From a virus (lineage: Duplodnaviria; Heunggongvirae; Uroviricota; Caudoviricetes), in the IMG/VR virus record IMGVR_UViG_2671180821_000007: a DNA stretch of 11,368 nt. One strand, 5' to 3'. Below are positions 4,000-7,069 of this stretch, piece by piece. Every line of letters starts with the position of its first letter. The first letter of the stretch is position 1. The notes under the pieces are model-generated. The model did no database searches. It was given only the letters and a program-made list of their open reading frames with translations, and was not told where the DNA came from. The position numbers and the translations under genes were made by a program.

Positions 4000-4290
4000 T
4001 CATTTGTGACCTATTGCACATGATGGCATCCAGTCTTCTGAATCCTCTGTCAGGGTCACATTTGAACGCAAACCGTGCTTCGTTTTCCGTTTCATATACT
4101 CCCTGCCATATTCCGCCATTGCCCCCGGCATATCTTTACCGAAGCGCGTCAGTGTTACAGGTTTACCGAATCCGTGTGCCCTCATATATGCCAGATAGGC
4201 GTGATAAAGATACCTGCGCGGACTGAACGGAATAATTTCGGCATTACCCACTAACAGACCATCACACATTACCGACGACATGAGGTGTAC
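4000..4290 (-). pseudogene. displaced 3' segment of the primase/helicase gene (C-terminal region), separated from the main ORF by the IS3-family insertion
   Basis: Open frame reads out of the IS end with no RBS (the track TTG start at 4296 lies inside the IS inverted repeat). Contains a motif (IPFSPRRYLYHAYLAYMRAHGFGKPVTLTRFGKDM) that resembles, from memory, the conserved C-terminal region of phage/plasmid P4-family primases. Confidence 0.5.
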
Positions 4291-4323
4291 TGGCAATAGC
4301 GGACACTACCATTTGTTCTTTTT

Positions 4324-5142
4324 TTAAGCAGCCATCTGATGATATTTTTCCCTGAAGGCTGCCGGGGAGATATTCCCCAGACGAGAGTGACGACGCTGAC
4401 GATTGTAGAAAATCTCAATGTATTCCCGTATTACTGAGATGGCTTCATCCCGGTTATTAAAACGATAGTGGCTCAGGCTCTCATTTTTCAGCGTTCCCCA
4501 GAAGCTTTCCATCGGAGCGTTGTCGTAACAGTTACCTTTACGCGACATTGATGTTTTCAGACCAGACTGCTCCTGTATGACCCGGTAATCGTATGCGCAG
4601 TACTGTGAACCTCGATCAGAGTGGTGGATTAGCCCGGCAGGTGGGCGCTGGCTCCTGAGCGCCATAAACAGGGCTTTACCTGTCAGCTCTTTTGTCATGC
4701 GCTCTCCCATGGCGTAGCCGACAATTTCGCACGTATAAACATCTTTGATGCCAGCGAGGTACAACCATCCCTCCTGTGTGGCAACATACGTCAGGTCCGC
4801 CACCCAGACCTGATTTGGTGCTGTAGGAGCGAACGTCTGGTTCAGCAGATTTGGCGCAACTGGCAGATTGTGGTTCGAGTTCGTAGTCGCTCTGAACTTG
4901 CGTTTCTGCTTACAGCGTAGCCTTAGCTCCTTACGAAGACGTGCCAGTCGGTCACGACCAACGATGATGCCATTCTCTGCCAGCTCCGTCTGGAGCCGCC
5001 GGGTTCCATATGTTTCGCGAGTGCGGATATGTGCCACCTTAATCTCCAGTTTTAGCCGCTCATCACTTTGTTTTCTGTCTGAGGGTTCATGCTGTACCCA
5101 GTTGTAATAACCGCTCCTGGATACACCAAATACCTGACACAT
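4324..5142 (-). CDS. IS3-family transposase OrfB (DDE catalytic domain), expressed as an OrfAB fusion by -1 frameshift
   Basis: Integrase-core-like motifs (WVADLTYV, HSDRGSQY, CYDNAPMESFWGTLKNE). The -1 frame is continuous from the slippery site upstream (…KK SNSVFCTGVAEKYALIEQWRQQFPIEAMCQVFGVS…). Confidence 0.9.
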   Translation of the reverse strand: MCQVFGVSRSGYYNWVQHEPSDRKQSDERLKLEIKVAHIRTRETYGTRRLQTELAENGIIVGRDRLARLRKELRLRCKQKRKFRATTNSNHNLPVAPNLLNQTFAPTAPNQVWVADLTYVATQEGWLYLAGIKDVYTCEIVGYAMGERMTKELTGKALFMALRSQRPPAGLIHHSDRGSQYCAYDYRVIQEQSGLKTSMSRKGNCYDNAPMESFWGTLKNESLSHYRFNNRDEAISVIREYIEIFYNRQRRHSRLGNISPAAFREKYHQMAA

Positions 5143-5177
5143 CGCTTCAATGGGAAATTGTTGTCGCCATTGTTCGA

Positions 5178-5480
5178 TTAACGCGTATTTTTCAGCGACT
5201 CCTGTGCAAAATACGCTGTTGCTTTTTTTAATATATCTCGCTCAAGGCGAGCTTCATTTAACGCCTTACGCAGTTGCAGAATTTCAGATTCCAGTTCAGC
5301 CACCGTGCGGGAACCAGGAGTACCGAGCCCTTTTCTGGCGGCGGTAACCCATTGTCCTAAAGTGCCTTCAGGAAGAGATAATCGGGAAGCGCCTTCACTG
5401 ATCGAAAGTTGATTTTCAAGAACCGTTCTGACAGCTTCGGCTTTGAACTCTTTAGAGTAACGTTGGGTTTTTCTGCTCAT
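5178..5480 (-). CDS. IS3-family transposase OrfA (helix-turn-helix, leucine zipper-like), with a programmed -1 frameshift site A AAA AAA at 5229..5223
   Basis: ATG at 5480 preceded by AAGGAG. Protein MSRKTQRYSKEFKAEAVRTV... ends just after the A7 run where the OrfB frame opens. Confidence 0.9.
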   Translation of the reverse strand: MSRKTQRYSKEFKAEAVRTVLENQLSISEGASRLSLPEGTLGQWVTAARKGLGTPGSRTVAELESEILQLRKALNEARLERDILKKATAYFAQESLKNTR

Positions 5481-5536
5481 TATTAGCTCCTTCTGATGCC
5501 ATTCTATTTCAGGAAGGAGTGTCCGTTAAACTCAGG

Positions 5537-7069
5537 CTACCTCAACATGAGATAGCCGCAGAAGTCCACCAGCGAATCGCCCTCGCGTTTTATCACCAGA
5601 GCTTCTTCTGATTTCTGCTGCTCATACAGCAGGCGTTTAGCTTCGTCCTGGTCAGAAAAACGAGTAAGCAGGTGGCGAATCACAACCGCCAGCTCTCCTT
5701 CTATTTTTTCTGCCAGCATGGGGTCGCGTTCGTTCTCCGGTACAACTTCCGAAAAATTGAATATCACCCGACGACGTGAGATCCCCCCGCTGCGGTCACT
5801 GAATGACATGGCGTTATTGTTAACCGCCAGCACTACTGCCGGAATACGCGTTGAGTAGGGGGCTTTGTGTTTCGGGTCAATTGCCACCTTGTCACCGCCT
5901 GTAATGGCCTTAATCCCTGCCCCATCACCAGCGTAGCGGGTCATATCCGGCATGATAATCAGCGAAAAGCCAACCACTAACGCGCGTTCCCTTGCATCTT
6001 CCAGCGCCTTCATGCTTGCCGATACTGTGTTGGCCTTACCCGCCAGCATGGTGCAAATCTCCGCCATCACGCTTTTACCACTTCCCCCTGGACCTGTTAC
6101 CTCAATGAATAACTGCCAGTCGTACCGGTTCGCCAGCACCATGAATAATACAGCCAGTACGCGATCCGCCTTGCGGTCATTCTCAGCCACCGAACGGCGT
6201 AACCACTTCCAGAAATTCGGCGCATGTGTTGCCAGCGTTTCCCCCTCTGCTGGTGGGCTGAAAGGTAATTCACTGGCAATTAACAACCAGTCGTTTTTGT
6301 TATGCTCCCGAAAATTACCTGTTCTGGTATCAAATACCCCGTTACTGAATCCAATCAGGTTACGGGCTGTATTCCCCATTACAGGCAAACTTAACTTCAT
6401 GGTATCGACCGCCGATTTAATGGCGTTCTGCGAATAGCTGATCTCCGCATCAATGAAAATCTGTGCCATAGCTCGCTGTAATTCTTTATCCTGTACTGGC
6501 TCCCATACAACGCCGTTGTAATGGTGAACAGTGTCAGAGTCAGCATGAATCGCCAGTTCACCGCCATAATGTGCCAGGAGAACTTCGCCGCGTTGACTTG
6601 CTCCCATCTGGTTAAGCGCCAGTGATGAAGCGTTATCGTCTTTTACCCGCTCTTTTTTCTTTACAGGCAGTTCAACTACCTTTTTCTTTTCCGCCTGCTC
6701 TGCCCGTTCACGTTCCAGATATTCGCGCCAGTTCTCCCGTTTCTGGCTGTGCATTCCTTCAGGGTAATAATCAGCATCCCTGACACCTGCCGCTGCCAGT
6801 TTCTGCCCGATGGTATTAACAAGCCCCGGACGCAATAACCCCGCCTGGTAGAGACGCACCCGATAGCGTCCGTCCGGTACGATTTGCAGCTTATCCAGTT
6901 CGGCAAGTTGTTGTTCTCCAAGCCAGACAGGAGGCACGCTGTCGCCAGCCAGTCGCCCGTCCTGTTCCTGCCACTGCTTCGCATGTGCCCACGCATCATT
7001 ACCCGCAAAAATGATGACTTCCGTCATTTTGTCACGCGGCTGGTGTTTTAAATTTGGCGCTTTTTTCAT
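5537..7069 (-). CDS. P4-alpha-like replication protein: phage/plasmid primase D5_N-like region plus SF3 helicase P-loop, truncated at its 3' end by the IS3-family insertion
   Basis: Walker A VTGPGGSGKS, with D5_N-like upstream region and helicase-like downstream region. ATG at 7069 overlaps the orf99 stop as ATGA (the track start at 7084 is a GTG). The ORF stops with TAG exactly at the IS boundary, ending ...DSLVDFCGYLMLR. Confidence 0.85.
   Translation of the reverse strand: MKKAPNLKHQPRDKMTEVIIFAGNDAWAHAKQWQEQDGRLAGDSVPPVWLGEQQLAELDKLQIVPDGRYRVRLYQAGLLRPGLVNTIGQKLAAAGVRDADYYPEGMHSQKRENWREYLERERAEQAEKKKVVELPVKKKERVKDDNASSLALNQMGASQRGEVLLAHYGGELAIHADSDTVHHYNGVVWEPVQDKELQRAMAQIFIDAEISYSQNAIKSAVDTMKLSLPVMGNTARNLIGFSNGVFDTRTGNFREHNKNDWLLIASELPFSPPAEGETLATHAPNFWKWLRRSVAENDRKADRVLAVLFMVLANRYDWQLFIEVTGPGGSGKSVMAEICTMLAGKANTVSASMKALEDARERALVVGFSLIIMPDMTRYAGDGAGIKAITGGDKVAIDPKHKAPYSTRIPAVVLAVNNNAMSFSDRSGGISRRRVIFNFSEVVPENERDPMLAEKIEGELAVVIRHLLTRFSDQDEAKRLLYEQQKSEEALVIKREGDSLVDFCGYLMLR

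Follow-up and report, generated by a model that had tools for sequence, protein, structure and literature searches.

The virus record IMGVR_UViG_2671180821_000007, a stretch of 11,368 nucleotides referred to here as the window, carries a replication gene related to the alpha gene of satellite phage P4, and the question that it raises is why this gene should come to a stop within an insertion sequence (IS) while a frame resembling its DNA-binding domain continues on the far side, beside the repeats of a candidate origin. A first-pass annotation of the window had described an IS3-family insertion that separates an alpha-like primase/helicase from its C-terminal segment and from the iterons, and had left room for a rearrangement mediated by the IS. 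Our answer is that IS600, in one simple transposition into codon 508/509, very probably split the gene, termed pri-rep, which belongs to a satellite of the phage-inducible chromosomal island (PICI) type situated in Shigella sonnei between cspD and clpS.

The IS600 element and its target site

The interrupting element is a complete copy of IS600, a member of the IS3 family, occupying 1264 bp at 4281..5544 on the minus strand and oriented like the gene that it interrupts. It is bounded by imperfect inverted repeats of 27 nucleotides (TGAGGTAGCC.../TGAGGTGTAC...; 70% complementary) at 5518..5544 and 4281..4307. These form the longest inverted repeat of the region, and their pairing fixes the length of the element at exactly 1264 bp. 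The element opens with TGAGGTAGCC and closes with CACCTCA, giving the pattern TG...CA. It encodes orfA (5178..5480, minus strand), which matches Pfam HTH_Tnp_1, and orfB (4324..5142, minus strand), a transposase of the DDE/rve type that matches rve / transpos_IS3 in Pfam and the IS3 family transposase model in NCBIfam, which bears out the annotation's call of an IS3-family element in a primase-like gene. Relative to orfA, the orfB open reading frame (ORF) is shifted to the -1 frame, and an A7G slippery site, AAAAAAAG, begins at 5229. A copy of IS600 in E. coli 2015C-3107 (locus L002 in our numbering) that is 99.8% identical is labeled as a programmed frameshift in RefSeq. The full 1264 nucleotides are 100% identical to copies on Shigella sonnei plasmids that are annotated as 'IS3-like element IS600 family transposase'. 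The traits of IS600 and the IS3 family that were examined are all found at 4281..5544, namely the size, the TG/CA repeats, the orfA/orfB arrangement with its slippery site, a 3-bp target duplication and the identity to reference copies. By these comparisons the copy is complete and has the same sequence as active-looking copies of IS600; relative to the IS600 of Shigella and E. coli, it merely sits at another insertion site.

The target duplication is TGT, read on the gene strand. The left copy is at 5545..5547 and the right copy at 4278..4280, both on the minus strand. A 3-bp duplication, TCT/TCT, likewise flanks the separate copy of IS600 in E. coli 2015C-3107. The right TGT together with the final A of IS600 rebuilds the native ATG codon of Met508, placing the element after Met508 in the 600-residue numbering of the protein (Met513 in the 605-residue numbering). 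When IS600 is excised along with one TGT, a single ORF results, which runs for 605 codons from a GTG at 7084, or for 600 from an ATG at 7069, to the TGA ending at 4000. We compared removals of zero to seven nucleotides alongside IS600, and the removal of three was alone in yielding a 50-nucleotide string that an uninterrupted E. coli gene contains verbatim (L001, position 7576). The first-pass annotation had reported that there was no clean target duplication and that the two fragments were not in frame. Both statements are overturned by this arrangement, and they arose because the ends of the IS had been placed about 7–10 nucleotides too far inward. The stop codon of the upstream ORF is the TAG at 5539..5537, as the annotation had it, but it does not stand right at the end of the IS, since it is part of the IS600 left repeat (within TGAGGTAGCC). 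IS600 also encodes the Leu-Arg with which the truncated product ends.

With neither a duplication nor a common frame in sight, the first-pass annotation had allowed for a hybrid junction; the flanks would then derive from separate primase genes or sites that recombination between copies of IS600 had joined. One draft scaffold of S. sonnei (L007, at 4881) has a structure of that kind, in which the right end of IS600 is followed by a different primase segment. However, in that scaffold the IS is followed at once by an N, which marks a scaffolding gap. In the window, the TGT/TGT duplication and the in-frame restoration both point to simple transposition, the restored junction is present verbatim in L001, and one intact gene matches the two flanks contiguously at 97.8% and 99.1% identity. 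Three long assemblies have the same split structure and are 100% identical to the window; two are multi-megabase records and the third is a contig of 985 kb. We reject a hybrid junction or rearrangement for the window on the basis of the duplication, the contiguous flanks and the 3-nucleotide removal test, and regard it as very unlikely. These alignments show instead a simple transposition of IS600 that splits the gene, and its precise excision would restore the gene exactly.

An assembler could also have misplaced IS600 inside the gene, as Shigella contains the element in many copies, at which short-read contigs are interrupted (L008–L011). The two multi-megabase records and the 985-kb contig are separate assemblies with the identical structure, hundreds of assemblies made independently have the left junction (558 index blocks), and a 3-bp duplication is a signature of transposition; an assembly artefact is accordingly a possibility to which we attach next to no weight. 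One draft S. sonnei assembly contains a tandem run of partial copies of the island (L008, 1..9630). For that run and for the scaffold L007 described above, the likeliest cause is faulty scaffolding or assembly at IS repeats.

Intact relatives and the occurrence of the split gene

Of 5426 complete E. coli genomes, 668 match the reconstructed junction region of 1178 nucleotides in a single piece with at least 80% coverage, at identities of up to 98.2%. The junction between IS600 and the gene is found in none of the 5426. The matches fall under one coding sequence, labeled 'DNA primase family protein', which is 1818 nucleotides long in both L001 and L003 (E. coli O111:H8). The window itself is 100% identical to CP010829.1 (GCA_001518855.1) over 11368 nucleotides and to two other assemblies over 11353 nucleotides. 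Both products of the split gene are found as exact matches among named proteins of S. sonnei: the upstream product of 510 residues is listed as a 'DUF5906 domain-containing protein' in 388 contigs, and the downstream product of 93 residues is listed as a 'winged helix-turn-helix domain-containing protein' in 215 contigs.

This listing of the fragments as separate proteins could be taken to mean that the arrangement is natural, with the helicase ending here and the winged-helix protein encoded by an independent gene. The intact relatives examined speak otherwise. They encode a single protein of 604–605 residues that is identical across the insertion point, DFCGYLMSSVMCDGLL (...DFCGYLM before the site and SSVMCDGLL... 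after it), and P4 alpha is also continuous across this position. In addition, the upstream product owes its final two residues and its stop codon to IS600 sequence. The first-pass annotation had proposed comparison with uninterrupted homologues, and as these run through the site as proteins of 605 residues, the primase-like gene does not end naturally at this residue and the downstream frame is not a gene of its own. We find two natural genes scarcely credible. A simple insertion explains why S. sonnei annotation has a separate 'DUF5906 protein' and a small 'winged helix-turn-helix protein': these are halves of one gene. All the components are known, public databases already include both halves of the gene, and the locus is an ordinary IS600 insertional pseudogene. 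It is a further example of IS-driven decay of a mobile element in Shigella and carries little weight beyond annotation. A literature search turned up no paper describing this IS600 insertion, and full-text queries on cspD, clpS and PICI gave nothing relevant.

The two halves of pri-rep and the iteron origin

The 5' fragment of pri-rep comprises native codons 1–508 at 5545..7069 on the minus strand. Its ORF begins at the ATG at 7069 (with the GTG at 7084 open too) and runs into IS600, where Leu-Arg-TAG completes the product of 510 residues. That product contains an N-terminal domain of about 130 residues, D5_N, and a superfamily 3 (SF3) helicase with the P-loop GPGGSGKS. The 3' fragment, at 4000..4277 on the minus strand, comprises codons 509–600 and the stop codon TGA at 4002..4000, and encodes nearly the whole winged-helix domain. 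As the annotation had recognized, the frame beyond the IS is open, and the positions it gave for the ORFs hold. This frame runs from 4296 to that TGA and encodes the C-terminal domain known from Pox_D5 and P4 alpha. Gene callers predict an ORF of 93 codons starting at the ATG regenerated at the right TGT. IS600 lies about 11 residues inside the winged-helix domain of about 97 residues, so that about 86 residues are detached.

Applied to the reconstructed protein of 605 residues, Pfam assigns D5_N to residues 167–296, DUF5906, which includes the SF3 P-loop, to 330–438, and Pox_D5 to 501–596; PPV_E1_C is also matched in the helicase part. The best match among solved structures is 1KA8 ('putative P4-specific DNA primase'; E=2.3e-24) at residues 502–598. 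The next is 7OLA (E=1.6e-10), a DNA primase of 797 residues that matches query residues 242–445 and which we take to be the primase-helicase of SaPI5. Assuming that label, the Staphylococcus aureus pathogenicity island (SaPI) enzyme has a homologous D5_N/SF3 core and the same role of replication initiator, but it is distant, and its N- and C-terminal regions do not align. By BLASTP, residues 145–595 (600-residue numbering) align with P4 alpha residues 320–771 at 50% identity with one gap, in agreement with the annotation's statement that a helicase part has been separated from a P4-alpha-like C-terminal domain. P4 alpha consists of a DnaG-type primase at the N-terminus, an SF3 helicase and, at the C-terminus, a winged-helix domain that binds DNA, and 1KA8 is the isolated form of the last of these (PMC2777425). 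Pri-Rep shares the central SF3 helicase with its Walker A motif and, in the reconstruction, the C-terminal winged helix; in the gene as it now stands, the winged helix is severed.

The N-terminus is unlike that of P4 alpha. No BLASTP alignment connects residues 1–144 to P4 alpha 1–319, which contains its DnaG-type primase. Residues 1–149 have no match to a primase or Toprim family, or to any other, in Pfam even at E<=10, and no conserved DxD is visible in the family alignment of the N-terminal domain. With 24 homologues as input, AlphaFold models residues 1–130 confidently (pLDDT of about 88), and a fold search with this domain returned a weak Toprim-like similarity. In relatives, the same N-terminal module is joined to other types of helicase, AAA_25/RepA-like and DUF927. 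Because the N-terminal residues have no alpha alignment, no Pfam match and no conserved DxD, 'primase', a term that the first-pass annotation also applied, is best treated here as a database label rather than a demonstrated property.

The 3' end of the gene has a further change. A single-nucleotide insertion near 4015 (4013..4016) alters the end of pri-rep to CAIGHK followed by the stop, compared with CASVTNDDGKN and the stop in intact relatives. It sits just past the winged-helix domain.

Beginning 31 bp past the pri-rep stop codon is an iteron-type origin at 3749..3969. It contains eight exact copies of TGTTCACC in both orientations and two copies with one mismatch (3793..3800 and 3814..3821), separated by AT-rich spacers. 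The annotation's placing of iterons next to the gene thus holds. The octamer is expected 0.44 times in the whole window, and none of 200 shuffles reached nine copies. P4 has 11 exact copies of TGTTCACC, each of which is annotated as an 'ori type 1 repeat' and belongs to ori or crr. In the window, the proximal half of the cluster is colinear with P4 ori: two copies 10 bp apart are followed by an AT-rich gap of 43 bp, one inverted copy and then direct copies. In the comparison with P4 9310..9413 and 4291..4410, this colinearity extends over the first five iterons, and the distal half resembles a crr repeat. The origin region is nearly identical in the intact E. coli relatives, except that one iteron is TGTTAACC here (3793..3800). 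The iteron origin is essentially intact and looks cognate to the protein. A full-text literature search for TGTTCACC gave primer noise only, among the matches listed. One additional exact TGTTCACC is present at 6523..6530, inside the pri-rep coding region and far from the origin, and may be due to chance.

The P4 alpha C-terminal domain is said, in work of Ziegelin et al. from 1993 and 1995 and of Yeo et al. from 2002, to bind the type-1 iterons of ori and crr. The likeness of the window to P4 extends to the SF3 helicase with a C-terminal winged-helix domain, to the octamer itself and to an iteron cluster that follows the gene immediately on its 3' side, the position of crr in P4. It differs in having a single origin region, while P4 has a separate ori and crr, and in a protein without an alignable DnaG-type primase N-terminus. 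Having the origin-binding domain, octamer and layout of P4 alpha, Pri-Rep predicts possible replication cross-talk between P4-like satellites and PICIs of this class in those E. coli strains that have the intact gene.

What the split would do to the element can be proposed from these homologies. The 510-residue product would retain the N-terminal domain and the SF3 helicase, followed by the two residues encoded by IS600. Such a truncated helicase would no longer be loaded at the iterons, leaving the island without autonomous replication after induction. The 1.26-kb IS600 would probably also be polar on the downstream genes, namely an 81-residue ORF, ssb and the protease-capsid gene. The first-pass annotation had predicted that origin recognition is lost and the element immobilized by the insertion. 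The first part is reasonable, because the detached domain is homologous to that of P4 alpha and the neighboring iterons are P4-like. The second part goes too far: at least three other lesions are present, and because they coexist, IS600 is not singled out as the immobilizing event.

Several points weigh against this account of the consequences. Homology to P4 alpha, together with experiments on another PICI, EcCICFT073, is the ground for deducing the loss of origin binding and replication. The 93-codon ORF with its regenerated ATG spans nearly the whole winged-helix domain, so the domain could be supplied in trans. Finally, IS600 may have come after one or more of the other three lesions and struck an element that was already dead.

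The second of these points can be taken further, to a split that is tolerated or even exploited. The 93-residue fragment would then be made via read-through from the IS and the regenerated ATG, and would either complement the helicase in trans or, acting alone, compete with incoming P4-like or PICI satellites for their TGTTCACC origins. Besides the regenerated ATG and the intact ORF, it may be cited that the exact fragment is conserved in the 215 contigs, that the P4 domain was crystallized in isolation (1KA8), and that the isolated winged-helix domain of pRN1 ORF904 folds and binds DNA (PMC2777425). Against it, no Shine-Dalgarno sequence is evident by eye before the ATG, and a consensus promoter scan found nothing on the gene strand. 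The single-nucleotide insertion changes the C-terminus of the fragment, and the rest of the island is decaying. As S. sonnei is clonal, conservation within the species is no sign of selection. We therefore think an exploited split improbable, and it is slightly more doubtful again that S. sonnei keeps and expresses a stand-alone iteron-binding protein of 93 residues that either complements in trans or blocks incoming TGTTCACC origins. An outward promoter for the 3' fragment at the right end of IS600 was considered (TTGCCA-17-GGTAAT, picked out by eye) and set aside, as the consensus scan reports none on that strand.

The host island and its other lesions

The simple insertion of IS600 is one of several changes to an island located between cspD/yljB and clpS of S. 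sonnei, a location read from the genomic surroundings in L003 and L004. Direct repeats of 17–18 bp, AATGGTGTAGTTAATTT(T), flank the island just outside the window. The order of genes is int, alpA, a small variable region, an Icd-like gene, phrog_15327, DUF4222, pri-rep and ori, followed by the 81-residue ORF, ssb, a fusion of a ClpP-like protease and capsid protein, and a last small ORF. Without its two ISs, the island is about 9.3 kb. The tyrosine integrase, identified by Pfam, is at 10130..11368 on the minus strand. Between int and alpA is the second element, a 768-bp IS1 at 9058..9825 on the minus strand, with a 9-bp duplication, AGCATGGTT, at 9826..9834 and 9049..9057; it possibly separates alpA from upstream control sequences. 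The fusion of ClpP-like prohead protease and major capsid protein (505..2372, minus strand) is broken into ORFs of 381 residues (1227..2372) and 252 residues (505..1263). It is frameshifted by a 13-bp deletion at about 1308/1309 relative to L003, in which the gene is intact and encodes 629 residues.

The layout of the island, taken from its sequence, fits a Gram-negative PICI and not the psu-delta-sid organization of P4; neither Psu, Delta nor Sid was found among the coding-strand ORFs searched, a search that omitted some small ORFs. As in Gram-negative PICIs of the EcCICFT073 type (Fillol-Salom et al. 2018, PMC6092414), int is terminal; int, alpA, pri-rep and the capsid module are on one strand; AlpA and a capsid-protein homologue are encoded; an iteron ori with AT-rich centers comes right after pri-rep; and flanking repeats are present. 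The rule for PICIs is that ori lies immediately 3' of pri-rep and consists of two sets of iterons around an AT-rich region (PMC6092414). For the EcCICFT073 PICI, plasmids with pri-ori, with pri but not ori, and with ori but not pri were assayed for maintenance, and AlpA-driven replication needed pri (PMC6092414). What sets the island in the window apart from EcCICFT073-type PICIs is the splitting of its pri-rep by IS600, the presence of IS1 between int and alpA, and the frameshift in the protease-capsid gene. Given these lesions, helper-phage-dependent induction, replication and packaging by this copy of the island appear unlikely.

Together, IS600, IS1, the capsid frameshift and the single-nucleotide insertion at the 3' end of pri-rep suggest a decaying and probably immobile remnant of a satellite. 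Such decay is typical of the IS-rich genomes of Shigella.

Two further observations concern the variable region and the related islands. The variable region contains an ORF of 271 residues on the minus strand (7908..8723) with no match in Pfam, NCBIfam or PHROGs. It overlaps a plus-strand ORF at 7936..8388 that matches phrog_6522, and because of that match the 271-residue ORF may be spurious. In the related E. coli islands L001–L003, a gene of the YlcI/YnfO family is on the opposite strand at the corresponding position. Two of these related islands, L001 2380..11478 and L002 1..10732, lie between the halves of a prophage gene for the terminase large subunit, which is represented by partial coding sequences on both sides; these satellites seem to have integrated into the packaging gene of a prophage.

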